From an uncultured Bacilli bacterium (GTDB lineage Bacteria; Bacillota_I; Bacilli_A; RF39; UBA660), in contig CALVIV010000001.1 in the NCBI GenBank assembly GCA_944331935.1, forward strand, positions 9,968 through 73,967: 64,000 nt of DNA, read 5' to 3'. Positions 4,737-27,957 of this stretch are shown here, in pieces. The notes under the pieces were generated by a model. The model was not told the origin of the DNA and did not search any database. It saw only the letters and a list, made by a program, of their open reading frames with translations. How positions within the stretch are numbered: position 1 is the stretch's first letter; each line of letters opens with the position of its first letter. Both the position numbers and the translations under genes were made by a program.

Positions 4737-6087
4737 TGTCTTTAAAACTCCTAACTATATCTCTAAATTCATCCCCTCTATCTTCACATTGTTTATATTG
4801 GTCCCATGATGCTGATGTCGGACTAAGTAACACCGTATCACCATCCACCACTACACTATTAATGTAATCCATCGCTTTGTTTAGTTTTTCAAAGGTATTA
4901 GTCTTAATACCAACACTCTCTCCATATTTTTTAACTCTATCACGACACTCTCCAATACCAACTATCTCTTTAACAGGACTAATAAAGTTATCTAAGTCAT
5001 GAAAGTCTTGGCCTCTCTCAAGACCTCCAAGTATTAAGATAACATTCTTATCAAATGATGATAAAGCTATCTGAGTACACTTAGTATTAGTAGCCTCTGT
5101 ATCATTATAATAATCTACCCCCTTAACTTTATCAATAAACTCTAATCTATGTCTAACACCAGTAAATGTCTTTAAAACAGAAACTATTGACTCATTATCT
5201 ACCCCTACTTCTTTAGCAATCATCATGGCCCCAAGAGCATTCTCAACGTTATGATTACCTTTAAGTAGAAACTCATCCCTATTCATAATAAACTCATCAT
5301 AGTAATAAAGTTTATTATCTAACATATAAGCCCCATTTATCTCCCGTTTAGAAGAAAAATACTTAACATTACTCTTAATATTTCTAGTACCTCTCATAAC
5401 TTCATCATTTTCTATATTTAGTATTGCAATATCATCATCACACTGATTTTTAAATAATTTAATTTTATCTTCTTTATAAGCTTCATAACTACCAAAGAAA
5501 TCTATATGAGCTTCTGACAAGTTAGTCATCAATGCAATATGAGGATTAAACTTATCCATATTAGCAAGTTGTTGGCAAGATACCTCCATGACAATAATGT
5601 CACCACTCTCTAATTTATCTAAGAAACTACATAAAGGATACCCAATATTACCTGCTAAATGTACTCTTTTTCCACTCTTTTTTATCATCTCATAAGTAAG
5701 AGTTGTTGTAGTAGTCTTTCCATTAGTACCTGTAATTCCAATCAAAGTAACATCATCTGGTAACAATCTATAAGCCATCTCTGCCTCATTAATAACAGGA
5801 ATACCTAACTCTTTAGCTTTTATTACATACTTATGGTCATTTCTAATACCAGGATTTTTAATAATATAATCAAAGCTATCATCAAGTAAATCATCAGGAT
5901 GACTATCAAATATTAAAGTAACCCCCAGTTGTTCTAACTCTTTAACTTTCTTATCATCTTGTTTATCCCTACTACCACCATCATTTAATATAATAGTATT
6001 ATTATGTTTACTTAAATACTTACATGCTTCATACCCACTACGAGCCATCCCTAATACTAATATTTTTTTATTTTCAAACATAAGCAT
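4726..6087 (-). CDS. murD: UDP-N-acetylmuramoylalanine--D-glutamate ligase.
   Basis: Mur ligase P-loop GITGTNGKTTTTTL. The N-terminal Rossmann segment KKILVLGMARSG is typical of MurD. 453 aa. Confidence 0.75.
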   Translation of the reverse strand: MLMFENKKILVLGMARSGYEACKYLSKHNNTIILNDGGSRDKQDDKKVKELEQLGVTLIFDSHPDDLLDDSFDYIIKNPGIRNDHKYVIKAKELGIPVINEAEMAYRLLPDDVTLIGITGTNGKTTTTTLTYEMIKKSGKRVHLAGNIGYPLCSFLDKLESGDIIVMEVSCQQLANMDKFNPHIALMTNLSEAHIDFFGSYEAYKEDKIKLFKNQCDDDIAILNIENDEVMRGTRNIKSNVKYFSSKREINGAYMLDNKLYYYDEFIMNRDEFLLKGNHNVENALGAMMIAKEVGVDNESIVSVLKTFTGVRHRLEFIDKVKGVDYYNDTEATNTKCTQIALSSFDKNVILILGGLERGQDFHDLDNFISPVKEIVGIGECRDRVKKYGESVGIKTNTFEKLNKAMDYINSVVVDGDTVLLSPTSASWDQYKQCEDRGDEFRDIVRSFKDSEK

Positions 6088-6198
6088 TCCTCATTTCTCT
6101 ACTAACATTATACTAAATTATGGAAATATTTAAACCCTTTAATTGAAAAGTATCTAATATATTGATATAATTTAATAAAGGAAAGGGAAGTAGAGGAT

Positions 6199-7443
6199 AT
6201 GAAGATAATAACTTTAGATGAAATAAGTTTTGATAAATTTGCAAGTACTCATAAATATCGTAACTATTATCAAACATCAGCATATGCCAAGACTATAAAA
6301 AATCATGGCTATGATATTCACTATATAGGTATTATAGATGATTTAGGCAACCTAATAGGAGCATCTCTACTTCTTTATAAAGAGGTATTTATGAACTATA
6401 AAATTGCCTATGCTCCTCGTGGTTTTCTCTTTGACTACACTAATGTTAATAATTTAAAAGAATTAGCATCTAGACTAAAGAAGTTACTAAGTAAACAAGG
6501 CTTTATCTCAGTAACAATCGACCCATATCTTCCTGTTAATATCAGAGATAAAGATGGTAAAATAATGAATATTAATAATGAAGCTAATATCGCTTTAGAA
6601 AACTTAAAAGCCAGTGGTTTTAACTATCTAGGGCCTAATCTTTTCTTTGAAAGTAAAAAACCTAGATTTGAAGCAATTGTAACACTTGATAACGATATTA
6701 AAGACATTTACCAAAGTTTTGAAAAAAGAGTAAGACACAAAATAAAGAAAGCTATTAGAAGTGGTGTTGAAATATATAAAGGCAGTAAAGAAGAATTAGA
6801 ATTATTTTATGAACTTATCAAAAAGAAATATAATAAACCTCTTAGTTATTATATTGATTTATATAACAATTTTGAAAATAATATTGATTTATACTTTGCT
6901 AAACTAAATACCGAAACTTTTGTAATTACAAGTAGATTACAATATGAAAGAGAAATAGAAATAAACAATGATTTAGCCAATAAAATACAAACTACCAATA
7001 ATGCTAATTCTAAAAAGAAATTAATTAATGAAAAGATGGAATCAGACAAATTAGTAAACACATACAAAAAGAACCTTGTCTGGGCTACTAACTTATTAAA
7101 GGATAACCCTGAAGGGTTAATTATTGGAACATCTTTAAATTTAACTTATGATAATGTCTGTTATTTAATTATAGAAGGTTTTAATCAAAGTTTTAAAACT
7201 CTAAACCCCAACTATCTTATAAAATGGAAAATGATAAATGATTACAAAAATAAGAATATAAAATATATAAATTTAAATGCTGTCAGTGGCGAATTTACAA
7301 AGATAAATAAGTATAGTGGTCTTAATGAAATGAAACTAGGCTTTAATTCTTTAGTAACAGAATACATTGGCGAGTTTGAATTAATTATAAGTGCTCTACC
7401 ATATAATTTATATAAGAATCTAAACAAAGAAAAGAAAAAGTAA
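6199..7443 (+). CDS. FemAB-family peptidoglycan interpeptide-bridge aminoacyltransferase.
   Basis: 414 aa. The N-terminal MKIITLDEISFDKF...YYQTSAYAKT resembles FemA/FemX. A coiled-coil insertion sits in the middle, as in FemAB proteins. Confidence 0.55.
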   Translation: MKIITLDEISFDKFASTHKYRNYYQTSAYAKTIKNHGYDIHYIGIIDDLGNLIGASLLLYKEVFMNYKIAYAPRGFLFDYTNVNNLKELASRLKKLLSKQGFISVTIDPYLPVNIRDKDGKIMNINNEANIALENLKASGFNYLGPNLFFESKKPRFEAIVTLDNDIKDIYQSFEKRVRHKIKKAIRSGVEIYKGSKEELELFYELIKKKYNKPLSYYIDLYNNFENNIDLYFAKLNTETFVITSRLQYEREIEINNDLANKIQTTNNANSKKKLINEKMESDKLVNTYKKNLVWATNLLKDNPEGLIIGTSLNLTYDNVCYLIIEGFNQSFKTLNPNYLIKWKMINDYKNKNIKYINLNAVSGEFTKINKYSGLNEMKLGFNSLVTEYIGEFELIISALPYNLYKNLNKEKKK

Positions 7444-13627: not shown

Positions 13628-14821
13628 TCAAATTTTTCTAATCAAGGATTTACCTTCTTTAAAATTACAATCAGAAGCACAAGTATAATCAGGAAAGGTA
13701 CACCTAGCACCTTTAGAATATTTTATGATATCTGATGCTAAAGGATGATTTTTTTCTTCTAAAGCTTTTTTATAATCAAGTAAAGTATCTCTAGTTTGTC
13801 TCATAATCTCAAGTTGAGCAGCAGAACAAAGTCTTTCTTTACATTTTAAAATAAAATCTTCATATTTACCTTCTTCACTAATTCTAACAAGCTCACCTTG
13901 TGGAACAATATCAGAAACACTTTTTATATCATTAAGCCACTCTACAGTTAAAACCTTATCATCACTAATAATAGGTGGAACAAAATAATCTTTTTGTTCT
14001 AATCTCTCCATCTGATAATCAAGTGTTCTATGTCGTTGTGCCTGAGCAAGTTCTGCAAAAGAACCATTATAAACAGTTGAATATACATCTCCAAAATATA
14101 TTTCTTTAGACTCTAAATCATTCCCAAATAAAGATAATGACCGAGCTTTATCATTTTTTAACAATCCTTCTTCTAATACATTTAAATTTCCTAATTCATC
14201 ATAAAAGTCTTGCATTTTACTAGCTAAACTATTTTGAAAATAATCATTCTTATCTGCTTTATCTATATAATTTTTCATAAAAAATGCGATATAATTAATC
14301 TGTCTAAAAGAAGTAGAATAAATCATTTGTGTAGGCATAAATACAGAAACTAAGTATCTTGCATTCTCTTGAGCAAGTTTAGTTATCTTTGAATCATTAA
14401 AAACATCCCCATACTGCTCTTTAATTTTCACTTTAAATATTTCTATCCACTTATTATAAAGTTCTTCTTCCCTTAAAGTTATCGCATCATCTGTTCTAAC
14501 TACAGGAGTATATCTAGCAGATTTTTCACTGGTAGTATATTGATGTTCATTATTAATAACCATCGCTAATATTTTAGGAATATTTTGCATATTAAAATTA
14601 ATTGTAATATGATCATAAACACTATGATGACCATTATTAAGAGTCATATTAACTCGTCTCATTGTCTTTTTTTCATCTTCATTCAAAAGATGAAAAAATC
14701 CTTCCTTATCATAGCAAACCCCAGCAATTTTCCCAGATAGTTTAATAGCACTATCCTTAGCAAAAGTTCCATTCTTTTTCAAAAAATAATTTGGTAAAAT
14801 ATCAATTTTTAGTTTACTCAT
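13628..14821 (-). CDS. ThyX-like (flavin-dependent thymidylate synthase family) protein, divergent and unusually long.
   Basis: GHHSVYDHITINFNMQNIPKILAMVINNEHQYTTSEKSARY follows the ThyX pattern (H-x-S-V..H ... S-x-x-S-x-R-Y), but the canonical RHR is replaced by NEH. A separate QRHR occurs about 150 aa later. 397 aa. Confidence 0.4.
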   Translation of the reverse strand: MSKLKIDILPNYFLKKNGTFAKDSAIKLSGKIAGVCYDKEGFFHLLNEDEKKTMRRVNMTLNNGHHSVYDHITINFNMQNIPKILAMVINNEHQYTTSEKSARYTPVVRTDDAITLREEELYNKWIEIFKVKIKEQYGDVFNDSKITKLAQENARYLVSVFMPTQMIYSTSFRQINYIAFFMKNYIDKADKNDYFQNSLASKMQDFYDELGNLNVLEEGLLKNDKARSLSLFGNDLESKEIYFGDVYSTVYNGSFAELAQAQRHRTLDYQMERLEQKDYFVPPIISDDKVLTVEWLNDIKSVSDIVPQGELVRISEEGKYEDFILKCKERLCSAAQLEIMRQTRDTLLDYKKALEEKNHPLASDIIKYSKGARCTFPDYTCASDCNFKEGKSLIRKI

Positions 14822-14877: not shown

Positions 14878-15272
14878 TTAAACTCTTCCATAAGTTTCTA
14901 CATAAGGTTTTTTCAAGTATTCTTTAAAAATTATTTTATTATAAATATTCATTTGTAATTTATAACACTTTCCATGAGAACTATGAGCAAGCCAAGAATT
15001 CCATTCTAACACAGTCTTATCTAAATCAAGAAGACCTCTTTCATATAACATATTCCAACGTCTTACTTTTCTTTTAATCTTTTTAATACTTCTTTTCCTA
15101 AGTAATCTATAACTCTCATATATCCTAAATCCACAAAAATCAAGTCCCATCTTATTAGGATAGTATCTACTTTTATTATTAAGTTCTAAATGAAGTCTTG
15201 TCCCTACATACTTCTCTACAACTTTAAGAACTTCCTTGGCTTCCTCTTTAGTTCTAACAAACATAATAAAGT
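14878..15272 (-). CDS. DGR reverse transcriptase, exon 2 (thumb/C-terminal part). It is joined to exon 1 by splicing of the group II intron.
   Basis: The reading frame is open from 15272 (ac|ttt att atg...). After splicing it reads ...YVRYMD-D-FIMFVRTKEEAKEV..., restoring YxDD and the downstream RT thumb. Confidence 0.7.
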
Positions 15273-17192
15273 ATCGAGTAGAAATCTATGTCACCATATA
15301 TTCCCCTCACGGATCCGTACGTGCAGCTTTCCCGCATACGGCTCTTCATAATATAGATTTTAATTATTCCTCAAATTGCTTCCAAATTCTATCATATATA
15401 TTTACTTTTATATATGGCTTAGGTATATTATATTCAACTAAAAGCTTTTTAAATTCTTCTTTAGTATAACTTCGTCTTTGACTTCTTCTATTTAACCATT
15501 TAAATAGAATTTGTAAAGAACGGTAGTAGAATTTGCAAATAGAATGGTAGTTGTCTGTTATTCCAAAATAATTATAATGTCCAATTAATTTTCTTTTAAC
15601 AGTGTTCATGATATCTTCTATTGGCATAGCTCTATTGTCTTTACACCACATATTAAACTCTACTAGTTTCTTATTAAATTTACTTCGCGAAGTTTTACGT
15701 TTAACTCTAAATTTACCTTTCTTGCTTTTACTACAGTAATGTGTAAATCCTAGAAAATCAAAAGTTTCAGGTTTTCCAACTTTTGTATTATTAAGAGCAA
15801 ACCTTCCAAAGGCAATCAGTCTAGTTTTATCCGGCGCAAGTTCTAATCCTACTTCTTTAAGTCTTTTGGGTAGTAGGACTTTATAAAAGTATTCCGCCTC
15901 ATCCTTATGTTGAAAACAACATATAAAGTCATCTGCATAATTAATTATGCTTGCAAAACCTCTTAATTTTGGTTTGACATATTTTTCAAACCATTTTATA
16001 AGACTGTAGTACATGTAGATGTTCGCTAGTATTGGACTCACTATAGAACCTTGTGGTGTTCCATATTCTGAGACATAGAATTGTCCTTTATCGAGTACAC
16101 CTGCATTAAGAAACTTTCTTACAAGTATCAAAATGTTAGTATCTTTAACATGTAGTTTTAGACATTTCATTAAATTGTCATGATTAATGTTATCAAAGAA
16201 GCCTTTAATATCAGCTTCAACAACATAGCTTGTATAATTCCATTCTATATCATATGCTACTTGTGCTAAGGCTTCATGACAACCCAAGCTTTTCCTAAAG
16301 CCATACATATTATTACTAAATCTCGGTTCAAATATAGCTTCAAGTACTTTCTTCAAGGCTAATTGTACTATTTTGTCCTCAAAATTTGCTATTGCTAAAC
16401 TTCTTAATTTACCATTAGATTTAGGGATATAAACTCGTCTTGATGGCATAGGCTTGTATTCCTTTGTTTTAAGGCTATTTACTAAATTTTCTAGGTTTTG
16501 AGGTAAGTTCCTCAAATATTCATCTTGAGTTACTTTATCAATACCTACTGCTTTATTACCATTTAATTCATCAAAACACTCTTTTAGTAATTCTCTATCA
16601 ATCATATGATAAATTGAAGTAAATATTATTTTATTGTTCTCTTTTGCAATTTGATTTATTCTTGTTATTTTCTGTGTCATTATTTATCACTCCTTGTATA
16701 GTGTAACGTTTCCTTTTAACAATTTCTATATTATGTGAACCCCTTCCCTACTTTGCATTTATTTATGCAATATTAACAGTACTATGAGTTCATCTGACTA
16801 CCTATATTTCATTTGATATATTTATTTCTTATTTCATCATACTCTGTACCAATTGGCTCACTGCCTACTCTTGGACTAAGAGAAAATATAGGTTCTCACT
16901 GTTCATCGAATAAACATTGTATATCATGATTAGGTCTTACAGACTCCGTGGAAGTTTGATAATACTTCCCATAACATATTATCAAATATCGTATTCCGTT
17001 TGGACGACAACGTCTACACTTCCAATCTATATCGATACGTTTCGAAGCTCAATACTAACCCTAATACCTAACTGTCTACGCTTAATCATAAACGTTACCA
17101 TTTATGACCCAAGACTCGTTACTAGATGTGACGGGTATCACTTTCTAGACAGGAGTTCCACCTGCTAATTTATTCGACCTACACAGTCGCAC
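15273..17192 (-). mobile_element. Bacterial group II intron (about 1.92 kb) inserted in the DGR RT gene.
   Basis: The 5' end is GTGCGACTGTGTAGG, matching the GUGYG consensus. A domain V-like GAGCCGTATGCGGGAAAGCTGCACGTACGGATC lies about 60 nt from the 3' end. The intron ends ...CGAT (AY). An RT/maturase ORF sits in domain IV. Confidence 0.8.
15364..16680 (-). CDS. Group II intron-encoded reverse transcriptase/maturase, lacking an endonuclease domain.
   Basis: RT motifs GTPQGSIVSPILANIYM and INYADDFICCF (YADD), and a maturase domain X (LIGHYNYFGITDNY). The 438-aa protein ends right after domain X with no HNH/En domain. Confidence 0.85.
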   Translation of the reverse strand: MTQKITRINQIAKENNKIIFTSIYHMIDRELLKECFDELNGNKAVGIDKVTQDEYLRNLPQNLENLVNSLKTKEYKPMPSRRVYIPKSNGKLRSLAIANFEDKIVQLALKKVLEAIFEPRFSNNMYGFRKSLGCHEALAQVAYDIEWNYTSYVVEADIKGFFDNINHDNLMKCLKLHVKDTNILILVRKFLNAGVLDKGQFYVSEYGTPQGSIVSPILANIYMYYSLIKWFEKYVKPKLRGFASIINYADDFICCFQHKDEAEYFYKVLLPKRLKEVGLELAPDKTRLIAFGRFALNNTKVGKPETFDFLGFTHYCSKSKKGKFRVKRKTSRSKFNKKLVEFNMWCKDNRAMPIEDIMNTVKRKLIGHYNYFGITDNYHSICKFYYRSLQILFKWLNRRSQRRSYTKEEFKKLLVEYNIPKPYIKVNIYDRIWKQFEE

Positions 17193-17859
17193 CATCCATG
17201 TATCTAACATAGTACTTAATATGAAGTTTCTCTTTAACATAATGGTCAAGTTCATTCATATAGATATTAGCAAAGAACTGTGACGTATAATTACCAATTG
17301 GAAGCCCCACTTCTTCACCATCATTATATATAAATTCATAAGTTAAGTCTAAAAGTTTCTCATCTTTAATAAATTTATTCAAAATATTATATAAAACATC
17401 TTTATCTATATTATAAAAAAATCCCTTTATATCACATTTAACAATATAATAAGCACCATACTTATTCTTCATCTTCTGCATATATTCCTGTGCCCTATCT
17501 ACCGCTTTATGGGTACCTCTTCCTTCTATACAAGCATAAGAATCATTAATAAAGCGAGGCACAATATAAGGTTTAATAAATTCATGAATATACCACTGAT
17601 GGACTATTCTATCAACATAAGGTAAAGCTCTAATAATTCTTTCTTTAGGTTCATATATTTTAAACGTTCTATATTTTCCCATTTTATATGTACCATTCTT
17701 TAATTTCTTATAAAGATTAACTATATTAGTCTCTAAATCTACTTCAAACTTTAAAACTTCCCTAGAATATCTCTTAGTCTTACTAGCACGTTCATGTGCC
17801 TCCAACAAAGCTTCAACAGTTAAATGTTTATCAAAAGCATTTCTTATCGTGTGAGGCAT
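17193..17859 (-). CDS. DGR reverse transcriptase, exon 1 (fingers/palm up to YMD).
   Basis: The DGR-specific motif LPIGNYTSQFFANIYMNELDHYV (I-G-x-x-x-S-Q instead of the group II Q-G-x-x-x-S-P), then ...YVRYMD immediately before the intron 5' splice site. Overlaps the avd end by 16 nt. Confidence 0.75.
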
Positions 17860-18239
17860 GACCTAATCCATCCTCCATTAAGATTAGAAATATTAGTAAG
17901 TTTCTTACTCCAAGCTGTATAATTTTTAGAATTAATATACTTTTTCTTATGAGAAACTCTAATCAATACTTTAATAATTTTAAAATTAGCATCAAGCTCA
18001 TTTAAGTAGGAAAGTCTTTTTTTCTTGTCAAACTCTTTCTGAGCATAAATAATATCCTTAAGTCCTTCATAAGTAGCATTTTTAATATCTTGAGCCAATG
18101 AAAAACGTTCACTCTTAGGATATTTCAAAAGTATTGTAAGAGTATAATAAATAAGTTCTACATATTGCTTATAAATAACTAAGCCCTCTAAATCATCCAT
18201 ATAGTCGCCCTCCAAAATATCATATTTTCTAGTATTCAA
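17844..18239 (-). CDS. avd: Avd-like accessory variability determinant (small helical-bundle protein).
   Basis: About 118-131 aa, predicted all-helical and basic. Positioned between the TR and the DGR RT. The track start is TTG; an ATG (MDDLEG...) lies at 18200. Confidence 0.55.
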   Translation of the reverse strand: MNTRKYDILEGDYMDDLEGLVIYKQYVELIYYTLTILLKYPKSERFSLAQDIKNATYEGLKDIIYAQKEFDKKKRLSYLNELDANFKIIKVLIRVSHKKKYINSKNYTAWSKKLTNISNLNGGWIRSCLTR

Positions 18240-18364
18240 AAAATCTACTAACTAGAAAAAATATTACTTCTATTTTTATTCGCAAACGAATTGGAAAAAA
18301 CTCTCTATGATATTTATTTTTTATTATCTAAAATAATAACTTAAATAATCATTACATCATAGTT

Positions 18365-18480
18365 CTCATCACGAGGCGGAACGAGCCATTAACATTAGGA
18401 CCACCATTGTTACCGTTAGTGTTGAAATAGAAAACTCCCGCTATATTACCAGGATTAGAAGAATGGTTACCGCCGCGCAC
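18365..18480 (-). repeat. DGR template repeat (TR unit 1), cognate to the VR at 21261-21378.
   Basis: 108/116 identical to the VR. Seven of the 8 mismatches fall where TR has A on the minus strand (VR has G/T/C there). The TR frame encodes many Asn (AAY) codons; the VR has Y/A/V/S at those sites. Confidence 0.8.
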
Positions 18481-18718
18481 TAATCAATAAAACAAAAGAT
18501 ATATTAAGTTTCTCCCAATAAAAAAGTACCATAAAAATTAAAAGTAAACAATATATTTAAACAAAATTAAACCCACATATTTTCTAGTATTCGTATAACT
18601 ACTAACTAGAAAGATACTACTTCTTTTTTTATTCATAAAATGAATTGGAAAAAACTTTATATGATATTTATTTTTTATTATCTAAAATAATAACTTAAAT
18701 AATCATCACATCATAGTA

Positions 18719-18828
18719 CTCATCACGAGGCGGAACGAGTTGTTACTGTTCACCCCACCAAGTAAAGTGGTACGATTAAAGTTGAATACACCTGCATTAG
18801 TATTATTGTTATAGTTACCGCCGCGCAC
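18719..18828 (-). repeat. TR-like cassette, unit 2.
   Basis: Same boundaries. The inner sequence encodes VRGGNYNNNTNAGVFNFNRTTLLGGVNSNNSFRLVM, with in-frame stops on both sides. Confidence 0.6.
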
Positions 18829-19049
18829 CAACTATTACAAAAGGTTTCACAAATATTTAAAGTTTTTCCCATCTAAAAAGTATCACAATTTAAAATAGAT
18901 TACAACTAAAAATTTCTAGTATTCGTAAACCTACTAACTAGAAATAAATTACTTCATTCTTTCATTCTTATCGAAATGGAAAAAACTCTCTATGATATTC
19001 ATTTTTTATTATATCTATAATAACTTAAATAATTCTTATATCATAGTCT

Positions 19050-19159
19050 CTCATCACGAGGCGGAACGAATTGTTAATGTTACCAGCGGCCTGAGTAGTA
19101 GTACGATTAAAGTTGAAAACACCTGCATTAGTAGTATCGTTATAGTTACCGCCGCGCAC
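19050..19159 (-). repeat. TR-like cassette, unit 3.
   Basis: Encodes VRGGNYNDTTNAGVFNFNRTTTQAAGNINNSFRLVM. The boundary has one substitution (ggaacgaa). Confidence 0.6.
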
Positions 19160-19405
19160 CAACTAAATCATATTACAAAATAACTTTTAAGTTTTTCCCA
19201 ACAAAAAAGTACCATAAATTACTAAGAAAAACAATATATATAAATAAATAATTTTAAACACAATACTTTCTAGTATTCGAAAAACCTACTAACTAGAAAC
19301 ATACTACTTCATTTTTTCATTCATAAAATGAATTGGAAAAAACTTTCTATGATATTTATTTTTTATTATATACATAATAACTTAAATAATTCTTATATCA
19401 TAGTC

Positions 19406-19513
19406 TCTCATCACGAGGCGGAACGAGCCATTGTTGTTACCATTACCAAGATTCCAGGTATTGAAGTTGAAAATACCTGCATTAGAAGTGTTGTTATTGT
19501 TACCGCCGCGCAA
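19406..19513 (-). repeat. TR-like cassette, unit 4.
   Basis: Encodes LRGGNNNNTSNAGIFNFNTWNLGNGNNNGSFRLVM, with 11 Asn codons. Confidence 0.6.
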
Positions 19514-19758
19514 CAACTAAATCACATCACAAAATAACTTTTAAGTTTCTCCCAACAAAAAAGTACCATAAATTACTAAGAAAAACAATCTATATAAACA
19601 AATAGTTTTAAACACATACTTTCTAGTATTCGAAAAACCTACTAACTAGAAATATATTACTTCATTTTTTATTCATAAAATGAATTGGAAAAAAACTCTC
19701 TATGATAAATATTTTTTATTATATCTATAATAACTTAAATAATTCTTATATCATAGTT

Positions 19759-19868
19759 CTCATCACGAGGCGGAACGAGTTGTTACTGTTAGGACCACCA
19801 AGATTAATAGTTGCGTTAAAGTTGAAAACACCCGCATTAGTAGTATTATTATAACCACCGCCGCGCAC
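19759..19868 (-). repeat. TR-like cassette, unit 5.
   Basis: Encodes VRGGGYNNTTNAGVFNFNATINLGGPNSNNSFRLVM. This is the track ORF 19746..19940. Confidence 0.6.
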
Positions 19869-20078
19869 CATAACATAAATAAAACGGTATTTAAAAGTTT
19901 TTCCCAAACAAATTTTATCAAAACTACATAACAAAAACAAGGCTAAGAGCCTTGCCTATGATTACTGATATTCGCCCAAATAAACTACTAACCATCATCA
20001 TATATATAAGTTTACTTATAAAAGTAGGAATTAAATCTCTAGGATATTAATTTTTTATTATATACACAATAACTTAAA

Positions 20079-20208
20079 TTACGATTATATCGTAGTCACG
20101 CTCATCACGAGGCGGAACGAGCCTTACGAGCATCGTATCAAAATAGAGCAACAAAGAATATTGACGAAATCAATTACACAAAAAAAACCACCGCCGCGCA
20201 ACAACCAA
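20079..20208 (-). pseudogene. Degenerate VR remnant (unit 6) with its own downstream hairpin.
   Basis: Carries the VR-type flanks (gtcacgctcatcacgaggcggaacgagcc and ccgccgcgcaacaacca) of the live target gene. The inner 65 bp are unrelated and hit an in-frame stop. A hairpin tacgat-ata-atcgta sits where the live VR has tagtcc-gtaa-ggacta. Confidence 0.5.
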
Positions 20209-20394
20209 AATATTTGGAAGCAACAAAAGAGCGAAGTACCAACATCAAGAGAAAATGGTACAATGATTTAATCCCTATCATCTAATTATTAGATGACAAT
20301 TTCATTGTACAAAAACTAAAATTAAATAACAATGAAAGTTTTTTCCAGTTTTACTATCGGTTAATATGATATAATTAACATTGAAGGAGGAAGT

Positions 20395-21054
20395 ATGGAT
20401 ACAGCAGTTTTAAACAATATTACTTATGGTATGTATATAGTAACTACAAAAGATAATAATAAAAATGTAGGCTGTATTATTAATACAGTAATGCAAATAA
20501 CATCAAAAAATCCTATAATATCTATAAGTTTAAACAAAGAAAACTATACAAATAAAGCATTAAAAGAAAACAAAAAATGTGCAATATCTATTTTAACAGA
20601 AGAAACAAAGCAAAAAACAATTTCAACATTTGGATATTTTTCTTCAAAGGACATAGACAAATTCAAAGATATAGAATGGGAGGAAATAAATAACTTACCT
20701 GTAGTATTAGAAAATATATCAGGATATATAATAGGAGAAGTTATAGATATAATAGATGTTAATACTCATGATGTATTTTTAATAAAGATTAAAAACACAA
20801 AACAAACATCTAATAAAACACCAATGACATACAAATACTATCATGAAGTTTTAAAAGGTAAATCACCTTCTAAAGCACCAACATATAATGAAACAAAGGA
20901 GAAGGAAAATATGAAAAAAGGAAATAAATATAAATGCACAATCTGTGGTTATATATATGATGATGAAAAAGAAGACATAAAATTTGAAGACTTACCCGAT
21001 GCTTGGAAATGTCCAATATGTGGAGTAGGTAAAGATAAATTTATTAAAATATAA
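20395..21054 (+). CDS. Flavin reductase-like domain fused to rubredoxin (high-molecular-weight rubredoxin type).
   Basis: An N-terminal FMN-binding split-barrel flavin reductase-like region, then a C-terminal rubredoxin with CTICGYIYD...[22 protein letters not shown]. Confidence 0.6.
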
Positions 21055-21058
21055 TTAA

Positions 21059-21098
21059 GTCCGTGGCTTATCAAAAGAAAAGCCACGGACTTTTTTCT
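21059..21098 (+). terminator. Rho-independent terminator of the rubredoxin gene.
   Basis: A perfect hairpin gtccgtggc...gccacggac followed by TTTTTTCT. Confidence 0.7.
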
Positions 21099-21111
21099 AC
21101 TTCTTTACAAA

Positions 21112-21162
21112 TAATCAAAAAAAACGAAAATCGCCTCGGGGCAAAAAAGAGGGCCCCGAGGC
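21112..21162 (-). terminator. Rho-independent terminator of the DGR target gene.
   Basis: Hairpin gcctcggggc...gccccgaggc, with a T-run on the minus strand (A-run 21111-21132 on plus). Confidence 0.6.
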
Positions 21163-21238
21163 TAATCATCACGAATAATTCGACAATATTCTTTCTTTCT
21201 CTATTTTTACCATCTTATTTTGCTCAGTGAAGAAGAGT

Positions 21239-21254
21239 TAGTCCTTACGGACTA
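21239..21254 (-). promoter_or_regulatory. GNRA-type hairpin immediately 3' of the VR, embedding the target-gene stop codon.
   Basis: Minus strand tagtcc-gtaa-ggacta, a 6-bp stem with a GTAA loop. The TAA stop is within the loop. The TR copies have no such hairpin. Confidence 0.55.
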
Positions 21255-23125
21255 GTCACGCTCATCACGAGGCGGAACGAGCCATTAACACTAGGACCAC
21301 CACTGCTACCGACAGCGTTGAAATAGAAAACTCCCGCTATATTACCAGCATTAGAAGAATGGTAACCGCCGCGCAACAACCATGGGTACTCCTCACTTAC
21401 CATCGTCCTAGCATCATTATACCATCCTGATGTCTCACTTAATCCATGTGATAAACATTCACTTCCATTACATGCTGTACTAGGATTATTACTTGTATAC
21501 TTGTTATAATACTTTGCTTCTGGCATACTCTCAAATCCACTTGAAGCTACCATATCGTTATAGTTTCCCATAACATACTCCCAAGCTCCTCCTGACATAT
21601 CATATACACCATAGATTGTTCCCGTTGTACTGGCTCCTACTCCTTTTCCTGTCATTCCTTCTTCTGTTCTTATATTATTATCATATGTATATTGACATCC
21701 ATAATCTGTATTTGCATTACTTGGACTTCCATAACTACATCCCGTTATATAACTATCTGATTTATTTTGATATACTTCCTTTTCTGCACCTGTATAGTTC
21801 TCATTTCCTAATTTCCCATATTTACTTTGACTTAAATAACTTACTACTGCCCATTCATTATTTTTCATAGAATGTGAGTTCATATTTGTACTAAATCCAT
21901 ATCTATTCCCAGCCGCACTCACTTTTGTCGCTACTGCATGAATATTACTTACATTTATATTTCTCCAACTTGTTACATTTGGTTTTATCATCGCATCAAG
22001 GTTAGTTACATTTCCTCCGCCATTACTTGCACTTGGATTACTACTACTTGTCTCAAACTTTCCTACCCAAATTCCAGAAAGTTCCTCTCCATCATAAGTA
22101 AATGCATCTGGAGTATACCAATTTTTAGGTTTTTCCGTTGCAAGATATTTTGCAGTACCTGTATCTTTTTCATCTTTACTTATAAACTTAATATCAATCT
22201 CTCCTGGTAAAGCTGCTGTTGGATTACTGTTCAAATACACTCCTCTTTTTCCGTAATAAGTTGTTCCATTCTCACTTGCTATTGTATAACTATATCTCGG
22301 TATCCATACCCACATTGTCTCTACATCATCCATATTTATCTCTGTTCCAACTGGAGCACTTGTGTATTCAGCTAACTTATCACTTTTTACAGTAACAGCA
22401 TTAGCCCATATACCCATATCATAGTTATACCAACCATTACTAGTATCCGTTTTAACCCAATTATAACCATCATGTTTAATTGCAATCATATTACTATCCA
22501 TATCCGGAGCATTAACTGCATCATTTCCTTGTTCAAAATCAGGGTCATCTACTTGTTGTGTTGCAAATACTTTAAGTTGTCCTAAATACACTTTACCCAT
22601 CGCTTCATTAGTAGCATTTATATTTAACCAAACTTTTAACTCTCCATCAATTACTTCTTTAGAATCTATAACTCCATAACTTATAATTGATGAATCAGAA
22701 AGACTTCCTGTAAATGTTCTATCTCCCATTTTAAGTTCATATCTTACATCTCTAGGATCTAACAATTCACAACTTCCTCCATCTGTTGTTTGACAATTAG
22801 ATAAAGCTTCTTCATCATCTACTAATGAAAGTGTATAATATAATCCTATATTACTTTTATTCTCAAGTGAAAACTGATAAGGTGTACCACTTTTTCCATC
22901 ATCATCATATGTTGGAATAACATTCACAAGTTGTATACCATCATTTTTTTCATTTAAGACTAAATCTATATTACCAACTATAATTTGAACATCCTTTTTT
23001 CCTTTTAAAGTTGTCCTAAGCCAAGCATATGAAACACCAATAATTATAATTAAAAGAACTACAAGAGTAATAATAGCCACCTTTTTCTTATTCTCTCTCA
23101 AAGTTCTCCCTATATTTTTAACCAT
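21245..23125 (-). CDS. DGR target (variable) protein. It has an N-terminal signal anchor and a C-terminal FGE-sulfatase/C-type-lectin-fold domain carrying the VR.
   Basis: The N-terminal TM is VAIITLVVLLIIIIGVSYAWL. GVYDMSGGAWEYV is an FGE/CLec-fold hallmark. The C-terminus reads LRGGYHSSNAGNIAGVFYFNAVGSSGGPSVNGSFRLVMSVTSP. Confidence 0.7.
   Translation of the reverse strand: MVKNIGRTLRENKKKVAIITLVVLLIIIIGVSYAWLRTTLKGKKDVQIIVGNIDLVLNEKNDGIQLVNVIPTYDDDGKSGTPYQFSLENKSNIGLYYTLSLVDDEEALSNCQTTDGGSCELLDPRDVRYELKMGDRTFTGSLSDSSIISYGVIDSKEVIDGELKVWLNINATNEAMGKVYLGQLKVFATQQVDDPDFEQGNDAVNAPDMDSNMIAIKHDGYNWVKTDTSNGWYNYDMGIWANAVTVKSDKLAEYTSAPVGTEINMDDVETMWVWIPRYSYTIASENGTTYYGKRGVYLNSNPTAALPGEIDIKFISKDEKDTGTAKYLATEKPKNWYTPDAFTYDGEELSGIWVGKFETSSSNPSASNGGGNVTNLDAMIKPNVTSWRNINVSNIHAVATKVSAAGNRYGFSTNMNSHSMKNNEWAVVSYLSQSKYGKLGNENYTGAEKEVYQNKSDSYITGCSYGSPSNANTDYGCQYTYDNNIRTEEGMTGKGVGASTTGTIYGVYDMSGGAWEYVMGNYNDMVASSGFESMPEAKYYNKYTSNNPSTACNGSECLSHGLSETSGWYNDARTMVSEEYPWLLRGGYHSSNAGNIAGVFYFNAVGSSGGPSVNGSFRLVMSVTSP
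21261..21378 (-). repeat. DGR variable repeat (VR) at the 3' end of the target gene.
   Basis: Matches TR unit 1 (18365-18480) with adenine-specific mismatches. Same boundary motifs. Confidence 0.8.
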
Positions 23126-26119: not shown

Positions 26120-26599
26120 GTGATAAAAGTGGTAGAAAATGGAAACAGAATGGCTATATTACGCCATAATAATGGTTTATTGCAAAAGGACATTGCAAAA
26201 ATTTTAAATGTAAAAGAAAATACTTATTCTAAATGGGAAAAATGCTCTAATGATATACCTTTAGAAAAGATTAATATACTAGCTAATTATTATGATGTTA
26301 ATTTAGATTATTTATTAGGTATATCTAACAAAATAGAACATAGTGAAAAGTTAAAAATTGATTATAAAAAGATATGTGAAAGGCTATTAGAACTAAGAAA
26401 AGAAAATCACTTAACACAAGCCAAATTAAGTGATAAAATAGGCTTCTTTCAAACAACCTATTCTAGTTTTGAAACAGGGGCAAGATGCCCTACTACACAC
26501 AAATTACTATATATAGTAAACTTTTATAATGCTTCTATGGACTACGTTGTAGGTAGAACTGATAGAAAGAAAATATATAAAAGTATTCATCTTAATTAA
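26120..26599 (+). CDS. XRE-family transcriptional regulator with two HTH domains.
   Basis: Two Cro/C1-type HTH segments: LQKDIAKILNVKENTYSKWE and LTQAKLSDKIGFFQTTYSSFE. Confidence 0.6.
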   Translation: MIKVVENGNRMAILRHNNGLLQKDIAKILNVKENTYSKWEKCSNDIPLEKINILANYYDVNLDYLLGISNKIEHSEKLKIDYKKICERLLELRKENHLTQAKLSDKIGFFQTTYSSFETGARCPTTHKLLYIVNFYNASMDYVVGRTDRKKIYKSIHLN

Positions 26600-27957
26600 T
26601 TTTTCAAGCATCCTACAGGAATAACATAAACATCATCATCACGCTTATAAGCATAATTACCAGTTGCAGTTAATACCATCATGAATGATGGTTTTTTCAT
26701 TTTTTCAGTATCTATTTTATTTTGCATTTTAATTAAATTTTTAGCACCTTCATCAATTAGTTTATCGCCACCTAGTTTTATTTCAACAAGTCCATAAGAA
26801 CCATTTCTTAAATGTATAACAGCATCACATTCTAAAGAAGATGAATCTCTATAATGATAAACACTTCCATTTATACTTTCTGCATAAACCCTTAAATCCC
26901 TAACACATAATGTTTCAAATACCAAACCAAAAGTATTTAAATCATTAATTAAATCTTCTGGTCCTATTCCAAGACTAGCAGTTGCAATAGAAGGATCAAT
27001 AAAATATCTAGTATCAGAAGTTCTTATAGCAGTTTTACTTCTTAAATTAGGATTCCATGCTGGAGACTCTTCTATTACAAATATTTTTTTCAAAGCATTA
27101 ATATATGAAAAAACTGTATCTGTATCTAAAGCAAAAGAATCATTATTTATCATATCATTTTTTATTGTTTCTATTGATGCTTGGCTACCAATATTTCTAG
27201 CATAACTTCTCATTAAATTCTTTACTCTAAGAGGATTTCTACTAACACCATCAACTCTGGATATATCAGAATTAACAATTGCATCATAATAATCAAAAGC
27301 TGAGTCTAAAGCAATATCTTTATCTAAAAATATACTTCTTGGCCATCCTCCTCTACAACATAAATAGGCAATATCTTCAAGTGATAGATTATTTATTCCA
27401 TTAACAGTGGACGGGCTATTAAATAAATCTTTAAGACTTATAGTACCAGTTGATTCTCCTGATTCATATAAAGTCATAGGTCTCATTAATAACCATGAAA
27501 ACCTTCCAGTCCCAGTATGTGCGATTTTACTTCTATCTACAGGAACAGCTGAACCAGTAAGAATAAATTGTCCTTCTTCCCCTCTATGATCTACTTCAAA
27601 TCTAATTGCATCCCATAACTTTGGAGCAAGTTGCCATTCGTCAATTAACCTAGGAGTATTGCCAGTCAATAATAAAGCAGGATTGATGTCTGCAAGAGTT
27701 AAATTTTGTTCTTGATTCGCTGGATCAGCCATATATAATACGCTTTTTGAAATTTGCTCTGCTGTAGTTGTTTTCCCACACCATTTAGGTCCTTCTATCA
27801 AAACAGCACCTTTACCTTTTAGTTTCCTTTCTAATATTTCATCAGCAATTCTACTTTTATATTTTTCCATTTTAAGGTCTCCTTTTGAAATAATTTTAAC
27901 ATTAAATAATACTTTTTTCAATGCTTTTCGGTAATTTGTAGACTTTTTATTCGGCAA
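26596..27957 (-). CDS. AAA+ ATPase of the DUF4143 family (COG1373-like).
   Basis: Walker A GPKWCGKTTTAEQ and Walker B LLIDEWQ, with a C-terminal restriction-endonuclease-like region. Paralogous to the gene at 45897..47138. Confidence 0.6.
   Translation of the reverse strand: MPNKKSTNYRKALKKVLFNVKIISKGDLKMEKYKSRIADEILERKLKGKGAVLIEGPKWCGKTTTAEQISKSVLYMADPANQEQNLTLADINPALLLTGNTPRLIDEWQLAPKLWDAIRFEVDHRGEEGQFILTGSAVPVDRSKIAHTGTGRFSWLLMRPMTLYESGESTGTISLKDLFNSPSTVNGINNLSLEDIAYLCCRGGWPRSIFLDKDIALDSAFDYYDAIVNSDISRVDGVSRNPLRVKNLMRSYARNIGSQASIETIKNDMINNDSFALDTDTVFSYINALKKIFVIEESPAWNPNLRSKTAIRTSDTRYFIDPSIATASLGIGPEDLINDLNTFGLVFETLCVRDLRVYAESINGSVYHYRDSSSLECDAVIHLRNGSYGLVEIKLGGDKLIDEGAKNLIKMQNKIDTEKMKKPSFMMVLTATGNYAYKRDDDVYVIPVGCLKN

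Follow-up and report, generated by a model that had tools for sequence, protein, structure and literature searches.

What does a diversity-generating retroelement (DGR) do with six template-like cassettes and a single variable repeat (VR)? The question is raised by a 64,000-nt stretch of DNA from an uncultured Bacilli bacterium (hereafter the window; GenBank assembly GCA_944331935.1, contig CALVIV010000001.1, positions 9,968 to 73,967 of the forward strand), in which a DGR occupies window positions 14878 to 23125. Such elements are usually understood to work from one invariant template, with a loop of fixed length and frozen non-adenine positions, a limit that a bank of templates removes. We conclude, at a probability of roughly 80%, that this is a multi-template DGR which combines scaffold switching with adenine hypermutation, in which all units feed one VR and a null cassette provides a probable OFF state. 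The reading is carried by the anatomy of the locus, by the conservation and covariation of the template units, by VRs that derive from seven cassettes within one species, and by a VR swap that is the sole difference between two haplotypes.

The window contains a complete DGR: a target gene with a C-terminal VR, a cognate template repeat (TR) with adenine-specific mismatches, an Avd gene, a DGR-type reverse transcriptase (RT) and a hairpin flanking the VR. Reading of the sequence and its open reading frames (ORFs) placed all of these parts on the minus strand, at the positions given by the original prediction, which had been made from the sequence of the window. The core features, apart from the templates, are as follows.

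21245..23125, minus strand: target (variable protein) gene, an ORF of 626 aa
21261..21374, minus strand: VR, 114 nt between the conserved ends GCGCGGCGGT and TCGTTCCGCCTCGTGATGAG, written from TR1 in this strain
21239..21254, minus strand: VR hairpin TAGTCC-GTAA-GGACTA, 9 nt past the GC-rich 3' end common to VR and TR
17844..18200, minus strand: avd, 118 aa from an ATG at 18200, in an open frame that reaches 18239
17193..17859, minus strand: DGR RT exon 1, ending in ...YVRYMD and the initial base of the following Asp codon
14878..15272, minus strand: DGR RT exon 2, starting with the last two bases of that Asp codon, then FIMFVRTKEE...

When realigned between the conserved ends, TR1 (18478..18365) and the VR (21374..21261) differ at eight positions (A>T, C>G, A>G, A>G, A>T, A>G, A>G and A>G), seven of them TR adenines, in agreement with the prediction. 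The TR/VR pair proposed there is real, but its spans of 116 and 118 nt carry two to four extra flanking bases, the true length being 114 nt for each repeat. Adenines make up 26 of the 114 TR1 bases, and the hypergeometric probability of at least seven of eight mismatches falling on them is 1e-4. TR/VR differences that lie almost solely at TR adenines mark a DGR, as do the position of the VR at the 3' end of its ORF (16 nt separate the VR end from the target stop codon), the GC-rich 3' end shared with the TR, and a downstream hairpin at the VR only. This GTAA hairpin is kept 3' of VRs and is absent 3' of TRs, both in the window and in relatives, some of which carry the compensatory variant TAGCCC..GGGCTA. 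In BPP-1, the initiation of mutagenic homing (IMH) sequence and a hairpin beside the VR suffice to define a target (PMC3240598); by analogy, the VR-flanking hairpin is a candidate target-recognition hairpin or cruciform. An 18-mer from the 3' block common to the VR and the TRs occurs seven times in the window, against 0.01 occurrences expected by chance, and a search with it found only one VR in the 64 kb.

Between the VR and avd, Tandem Repeats Finder reported a period of 354 bp in 4.8 copies. This stretch holds six cassettes with VR-type ends in units of ~350 bp, namely one T-rich null cassette and five in-frame, adenine-rich TRs, and from the tandem period an origin by tandem duplication of a TR with its spacer is obvious. 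The prediction had described the element as architecturally unusual, which holds but was incomplete: beyond the split RT gene and the 2.8-kb distance between TR and VR, TR1 is one of six tandem units. A single TR per element is typical of DGRs, though not strictly defining, and this element departs from it. From the VR side towards avd, the array reads as follows.

19935..20332, minus strand: null unit, with a promoter-like TTGTTA-17-TACAAT at 20332..20304
20275..20265, minus strand: leader of the null unit, GGGATTAAATC
20199..20101, minus strand: null cassette, 99 nt, T-rich, with an in-frame TAA
20037..20027, minus strand: spacer element of the null unit, GATTTAATTCC; terminator hairpin at 19957..19935
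19620..19920, minus strand: TR5 unit, with an extended -10 TGATAAAAT at 19920..19912, a leader at 19905..19895 and spacer hairpins to 19620
19866..19759, minus strand: TR5 cassette, 108 nt, donor of the VR of sister strain L001
19267..19568, minus strand: TR4 unit, cassette at 19511..19407, 105 nt
18913..19214, minus strand: TR3 unit, cassette at 19157..19050, 108 nt, donor of the VR of L070
18581..18885, minus strand: TR2 unit, cassette at 18826..18719, 108 nt
18226..18531, minus strand: TR1 unit, cassette at 18478..18365, 114 nt, cognate of the VR of this strain

TR1 to TR5 (114, 108, 108, 105 and 108 nt) differ in sequence, are in frame, contain 24-29% A and are rich in AAC and AAT codons. 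The spacer of TR1 runs into the ribosome-binding site of avd.

Use of the array at the VR is evident from sister assemblies, which were found by lookup of the exact protein encoded by RT exon 1. Two of these (L002, L003) are identical to the window, and a third from a different sample (L001) equals it over 20,681 nt apart from positions 21284-21364, where the 81-nt TR1-type interior of the VR is swapped for a 75-nt TR5-type interior. Since L001 is otherwise identical, the template swap in the VR is the sole difference between the two haplotypes. Variability of the VR had been proposed as a test of the original prediction, and its outcome favours a DGR: samples whose sequences are otherwise the same differ in the VR. 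Each recovered VR was then compared with 15 distinct cassettes pooled from the arrays of the species, and the donors were assigned as follows (mismatches at donor adenines/other mismatches).

VR of the window and L002: donor TR1, 7/1
VR of L001: donor TR5, 12/1
VR of L059 (105 nt): donor a TR4 variant, 16/0
VR of L066 and L067 (105 nt): donor a TR4 variant, 14/0
VR of L068 and L069: donor a 114-nt TR that the window lacks, 10/0
VR of L070: donor TR3, 12/2
VR of L074 and L075: donor a 102-nt TR, the one nearest avd in the array of that strain, 14/0
VR of L004, L010, L072 and L073: donor the null cassette, 0-1/0

Across seven independent coding alleles, 86 of the 90 mismatches lie at donor adenines and four elsewhere (25% expected at adenines; binomial P ~1e-46). 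Between 27 and 67% of the donor adenines are changed in coding VRs, and no independent coding allele examined is an unmutated copy of its donor. The VR alleles of this one species trace to seven cassettes (TR1, TR3, TR4-type, TR5, two TRs absent here, and null), and the donor sits on the same contig wherever the contig reaches the array. At the protein level, a 90%-identity cluster of the target with 82 members includes, among the 15 listed, scaffold classes of 622, 623, 624 and 626 aa together with truncated proteins of 591 and 592 aa; the protein alleles P0003 and P0012 match TR3. One non-adenine change each was seen in the VR of the window (at 21349, relative to TR1) and in that of L001 (at 6518, relative to TR5), C>G both times, and at window position 21349 the remaining TRs have G.

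The tandem origin of the array and the tendency of short-read assemblers to collapse repeats might suggest an ordinary single-template DGR, in which TR1 is copied to the VR and the other units are decaying duplicates or the swaps mis-assemblies. The swapped VRs, however, copy no array member but differ at 5-17 adenines, and for this reason are not mis-joins. A null copy in the VR is also found in a long-read assembly, the circular metaFlye metagenome-assembled genome (MAG) L026, and in L004, the contig of which has a 'tig' name that suggests a long-read assembler. Mis-assembly across the repeats was rejected on these two grounds, the many adenine differences of donor-specific VRs and the null copy in L026.

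Decay of the additional units is contradicted by their conservation. Species-representative genomes were scanned with the shared 18-mer, yielding 60 loci, and ~18 of these, from ~15 MAG species (uncultured Bacilli, 'Tenericutes', Candidatus Onthousia, Bacilli incertae sedis), carry four to seven copies spaced 330-350 bp apart. The order in the ~18 loci is constant: an A-poor VR followed by the TAGTCC-GTAA-GGACTA hairpin, a first unit that is usually null, and three to ten or more A-rich TRs, with avd and an intact 353-aa RT after the last TR in loci that reach that far. Of 14 first-position cassettes from relatives, 13 contain a stop or a frameshift, and 57 of 59 TR cassettes are in frame and stop-free. 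In relatives with both a VR and an array, the VR matches one of its own TRs with differences at adenines only (L005, 17/0; L036, 15/0; L043, 5/0; L047, 15/0). L010, the MAG of a close relative, is ~94% identical across the locus. In L033 (6067-6407) and at the equivalent place in L036, the first unit combines a null-type leader and spacer with an ordinary, in-frame, adenine-containing cassette in place of the T-rich null sequence.

Most relatives also have the element in the same place. The neighbours named in the original prediction (ThyX-like, rpsL, rpsG and fusA) are indeed present, but its claim of an insertion next to the str operon finds no support: a placement common to most relatives makes the DGR look resident rather than recently inserted. 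A scan of Joint Genome Institute (JGI) metagenomes with a 29-mer from the VR flank returned a single short human-gut contig, and a scan of viral contigs gave one unrelated match and hence no sign of a phage-borne element.

Alignment of 56 units indicated that each has the features of a template RNA of its own. An extended -10 element (TGnTAnnnT), each specified base of which is kept in 46-54 of the 56 units, lies 7-8 nt upstream of the leader GGGAAAAACTT. On the 3' side of the cassette, a long-range helix (CTATGATAT/ATATCATAG) encloses a small hairpin and is followed by the element AGAGTTTTTTCC, which is complementary to the leader, by a variable small hairpin, and by a final spacer hairpin (TTTCTAGT...ACTAGAAA) whose loop, GTTAGTAG...CGAATA, is conserved. 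The helices were drawn by hand and tested by pair counts: 91.9% of cells are paired, compared with 46-57% when the partners are slid, and two-sided pair changes number 21 versus 8-16, with none of 500 shuffles reaching the observed values. RNAalifold, applied to whole units, recovered the structure only in part. The null units keep the leader-spacer helix through matching changes on both strands (GGGATTAAATC with GATTTAATTCC and, in two loci, GGGATTAGGTC with GATCTAATTCC) and have a conserved promoter-like TTGTTA-17-TACAAT of their own and a terminator hairpin at the end. Conservation with covariation over ~15 MAG species and cassettes that are still in frame and adenine-rich, together with the adenine differences of the swapped VRs and the long-read assembly, leave the single-template explanation highly improbable.

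The spacers after TR5 and TR1 resemble the Rfam family RT-14 (RF02921) at 36.3 and 33.1 bits, under the gathering score of 48.1, and share with it a ...UAGUAG...CGAAUAC... hairpin, so that RT-14 is a relative at best; no gathering-level Rfam match was obtained in 12 related loci. RT-associated motifs have been proposed as DGR spacer RNAs; in BPP-1, one of them (RT-10) is located between TR and brt (PMC5737381).

The null cassette, too, is found at the VR. Null copies occupy the VR in L004, L010, L026, L048, L013, L072 and L073, matching the strain's own null cassette exactly in L010, L026 and L048 and with one A>G in L013, all four being other species-level MAGs, and with one A>T in L004. The seven null-derived VRs contain three substitutions, all at adenines (14% of positions), plus differences in the length of T-runs; such adenine-only changes fit an origin by reverse transcription. 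In L004 the null copy truncates the target protein to 592 aa. Deletion from the VR to the null cassette was considered as the source of the 591- and 592-aa proteins and rejected, a flavin-reductase gene being still located 3' of the VR in L004, L072 and L073:

20395..21054, plus strand: flavin reductase-rubredoxin fusion gene (Pfam), on the opposite strand between the VR and the template array

L004 and L010 also retain the original null cassette. With both this cassette and the flavin-reductase gene remaining downstream, the null state of L004 is a replacement and not a deletion. The fusion gene is absent from several related MAGs, where the VR lies 440-650 nt from the null cassette instead of ~1160 nt, and is therefore likely a passenger insertion and not a part of the DGR. 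We interpret the null cassette, once written into the VR, as a probably reversible OFF state.

A second link between the null cassette and the target gene lies in the 3' untranslated region (UTR) of the latter.

21179..21207, minus strand: element E, AAAATAGAGAAAGAAAGAATATTGTCGAA, within the 3' UTR of the target gene, an inverted repeat with the centre of the null cassette
21113..21162, minus strand: terminator-like hairpin and T-tract, predicted from the sequence and a terminator scan to end the target transcript

Element E is near-invariant, 29 nt long and situated ~55 nt 3' of the VR, and an inverted, imperfect copy of it lies inside the null cassette (20140-20168). The E/null pair is kept in 11 of 14 related loci and is confined to orthologues of this target. 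It could tether the null RNA to the target locus, be a shared protein-binding or promoter element, or be a relic of template switching. The opposite strand of E reads like TCGACA-16-TATTTT. On a complete 1.5-Mb MAG chromosome (OZ006970.1; L032:7300-8000), a second locus combines a coding VR with element E and a null-like cassette; this cassette unusually has the VR-type GTAA hairpin flank, and the locus is separate from the one with array, avd and RT (L026).

In the multi-template DGR as we picture it, a single Avd-RT pair would be served by an array of template RNAs, each presumably transcribed separately. The leader of each RNA would pair with the spacer element and so bracket the cassette, and the downstream hairpins would probably hold the RNA in place for self-primed synthesis of cDNA, in analogy to the BPP-1 spacer. 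In Bordetella work, the spacer reportedly primes cDNA synthesis by the RT-Avd complex. Adenine-mutagenised cDNA of any cassette would replace the VR interior through the shared ends GCGCGGCGGT and TCGTTCCGCCTCGTGATGAG, and we propose that information flows one way because only the VR has the GTAA-loop hairpin. Variation would then have two tiers: the choice of scaffold (here 105, 108 or 114 nt, and in one related strain 102 nt, with different fixed residues) and randomisation at AAY codons (Y, pyrimidine). Arrival of the null cassette in the VR would truncate the protein, and a later coding cassette could return it to a coding state.

A stronger version of this model is conceivable, but we put it forward tentatively and hold it to be somewhat less probable than not. 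Here the two tiers and a dedicated OFF cassette would form a programmed system, the null state would be written by the same RT and be overwritable, and the conserved complementarity between null RNA and element E would tether the RNA to the target locus or guide it there. If true, this would represent combined phase and antigenic variation driven by a retroelement, with an RNA-guided component in DGR target finding.

Several observations weigh against the multi-template reading. The leader-spacer helix pairs at 86.6%, but mostly as an A-run against a U-run, with ambiguity of register. A consensus promoter scan found 32 sites compared with 35.7 in shuffled sequence, in DNA of 29% GC, and since it did no better than on shuffled sequence, the argument for per-unit promoters is one of conservation. 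No TR2-derived VR was present among the alleles examined, and retrohoming from each cassette is deduced from its end products. The null-derived VRs have 0-1 adenine changes each, i.e. ~3% of adenines compared with 27-67% in coding VRs, and the flanks common to the null cassette and the VR extend over 31 nt on the 3' side and ~18 nt on the 5' side, the former being longer than in the coding TRs. Finally, some related MAGs contain two to four further VR-bearing genes on other contigs.

The few adenine changes and the longer flank raise the question of whether null transfer, and conceivably all scaffold switching, could proceed by homologous gene conversion. Cassettes would then be exchanged by a RecA-type mechanism, as from pilS to pilE in Neisseria or in Borrelia vls, and the RT would hypermutate the VR later from the cognate TR. 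The exact or near-exact null copies in L010, L026, L048 and L072, unexpected from an adenine-error-prone RT, speak for such a mechanism. Their low rate of change would follow either if null transfers are single recent events, compared with many selected rounds for coding VRs, or if the null cassette takes a route of higher fidelity, for which the 31-nt 3' flank would favour recombination. The three substitutions that did arise are all at adenines. For the coding cassettes, homology arms of only 10-20 nt, the lack of any unmutated donor copy among independent coding alleles of the species and its relatives, and the fact that the RT would still have to use every TR as a template all argue against conversion. 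Each cassette moreover keeps a promoter and a covarying RNA structure, which is sensible for RNA templates but not for silent DNA donors. We therefore consider gene conversion an unlikely source of the swaps.

The further VR-bearing genes imply that the array may partly serve several targets. Such additional ORFs were seen in L007, L016, L054, L060, L040, L031, L020, L029, L045, L062 and L044; they agree at the 3' end, diverge at the 5' end in some cases, have different downstream flanks and lack element E. Probably the same arrays use them as remote targets. One could go further and assume that the extra TRs mainly serve remote targets, with one TR per VR, and that their use at this VR is occasional cross-talk: the lengths of the remote VRs match different cassettes in several related MAGs, and surveys pair multiple TRs with VRs of their own (PMC6642488). 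Against this stand the presence of one VR in the 64-kb window, the restriction of the 18-mer matches in the L010 MAG to a single contig, the identity of all cassette ends with those of this VR, and the seven cassette types at one VR site in one species, which amount to routine use. An array devoted chiefly to remote targets is accordingly very improbable, and we retain the multi-template DGR acting on this VR as the preferred explanation.

How does such an element compare with known systems? With BPP-1 (mtd-VR, avd, TR, spacer, brt) it shares Avd and an RT of the DGR clade, adenine-specific differences, a VR at the 3' end of the target, a GC-rich common 3' end, a hairpin at the VR only, and structured RNA 3' of the TR. 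In contrast to BPP-1, which has one TR, it possesses a tandem array in which each unit has its own copy of promoter and spacer, plus a null unit; it is chromosomal and not evidently phage-borne, and in this strain its RT gene is split by an intron. DGRs with more than one TR are on record (PMC11661182; PMC6642488), and in DGR surveys, which take a single TR as the norm and note more only in passing, cases with at least two TRs were checked by hand or removed, not analysed. Other cellular DGRs that deviate from the layout of one TR and one VR either direct one TR to many VRs or have been treated as separate TR/VR pairs. In its logic the system resembles Neisseria pilE/pilS and Borrelia vlsE, which likewise express a single site and store alternative partial cassettes with conserved ends next to it, some of the variants being non-functional. 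There, however, promoterless DNA donors are moved by recombination, whereas here RNA-template units lie beside an RT, and adenine-specific mutations accompany each coding transfer. Engineered multi-TR DGRs in E. coli (bioRxiv 10.64898/2026.07.21.739853) similarly use one RT/Avd pair with several designed TRs, but these are artificial and directed at different regions or genes, and do not form a natural array competing for one VR. In the literature searched, which included few subscription papers, no tandem TR array acting on one VR, no switching of scaffold or length and no null cassette was described.

With a bank of alternative templates, a binding site could change in length and framework residues and then be hypermutated, opening a larger sequence space and allowing jumps between ligand classes. 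A DGR that switches its target off and on, as suggested here, would tie these elements conceptually to antigenic and phase variation of the classical kind. Among gut Bacilli the system is widespread within a clade that is still poorly known and that includes at least one genome of ~1.5 Mb. The array also offers testable design rules for template RNAs (promoter, leader-spacer clamp, invariant ends and spacer hairpin) and a natural precedent for DGR engineering with multiplexed templates.

The enzymatic components of the DGR were identified as predicted. Avd scores above the cut-off of the NCBIfam model for DGR Avd (NF033474, 81.9 bits, cut-off 80) and of Pfam bAvd (PF22296, 79.8 bits, cut-off 40), it also matches PHROG 3206 ('Avd protein of DGR'), and the gene call in L001 is likewise 118 aa. 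The two RT exons are separated by an intron with its own RT gene.

15273..17192, minus strand: group II intron, 1920 nt, GUGCG...CGAU, inside the second Asp codon of YMDD
15364..16680, minus strand: intron RT/maturase ORF (TIGR04416, 333.7 bits, cut-off 300)

In-silico removal of 17192..15273 joins ...YVRYMD|DFIMFVRT... into a 353-aa RT with LPIGNYTSQ and YMDD, which aligns without gaps and at 98% identity to the uninterrupted RT of L004 and matches PHROG 1423 reverse transcriptase (391 bits) and Pfam RVT_1 (73 bits). Assignment of this RT to the DGR clade was by motif and context, the profile libraries containing no DGR-specific RT model. The intron matches Rfam models for domains D1-D4 (RF02005, 138.8 bits) and D5/D6 (RF00029, 52.6 bits) and, judged by these ribozyme domains, its ends, its maturase and an empty-site allele, is a bacterial group II intron; Rfam gave no second one in the window. 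Among the related loci that include the RT, the gene contains the intron in just three contigs, all of them identical or almost identical to the window. Because the intron interrupts the YMDD codon, the RT gene of this strain would need splicing in vivo before it could act. The window and L001 both have the intron and yet differ in their VRs, which indicates that the intron-bearing lineage still turns its VR over. An intron in the catalytic codon of the RT provides a natural test of the dependence of a DGR on splicing.

In the target protein, which has more than 4000 unannotated homologues, a membrane-anchor helix at the N-terminus is followed by a beta-rich domain and, at the C-terminus, by a variable domain whose sequence closes with ...RGG[variable]SFRLVMSVTSP. 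AlphaFold, run on the full protein with 37 homologues (overall predicted local distance difference test score, pLDDT, 41), gave a helix at residues 13-42 and a beta domain at 55-190 with a pLDDT of 70-83, the remainder being without a model; a run on residues 326-626 (42 rows) had a pLDDT of 32 and was unusable. The original prediction had assigned an FGE/C-type-lectin fold to the C-terminus. Matches to Pfam FGE-sulfatase do exist, but all fall below threshold, both for the target itself (17.4 bits, E 0.0036, cut-off 23.3 bits) and for the 18 of 37 homologues that match at E<=0.05. Searches of PDB sequences with the C-terminal domain and with a family profile returned nothing meaningful. The GGAWEYV, RGG and FRLV motifs fit what we take to be the FGE/C-type-lectin class of DGR targets, and a fold of this type is likely for the C-terminus, on weak support from these sub-threshold matches.

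Some observations concern the surroundings of the element. The ThyX-like protein (13628-14821, minus strand, 397 aa; partial Pfam Thy1 match over residues 27-174) is encoded directly 3' of RT exon 2, and the corresponding region of L004 is called as two shorter ORFs. Insertion sequence (IS) elements were found in L004 between the TR1 unit and avd (15033-16463, DDE_Tnp_IS240), in the strain whose VR holds a null copy, and in L066 upstream of the target (5662-6480, DDE_Tnp_1). An AAA_14/DUF4143 ATPase gene (26596-27957) adjoins a gene for a double helix-turn-helix (HTH) regulator (26120-26599), and the pair is kept upstream of the DGR in sister strains.

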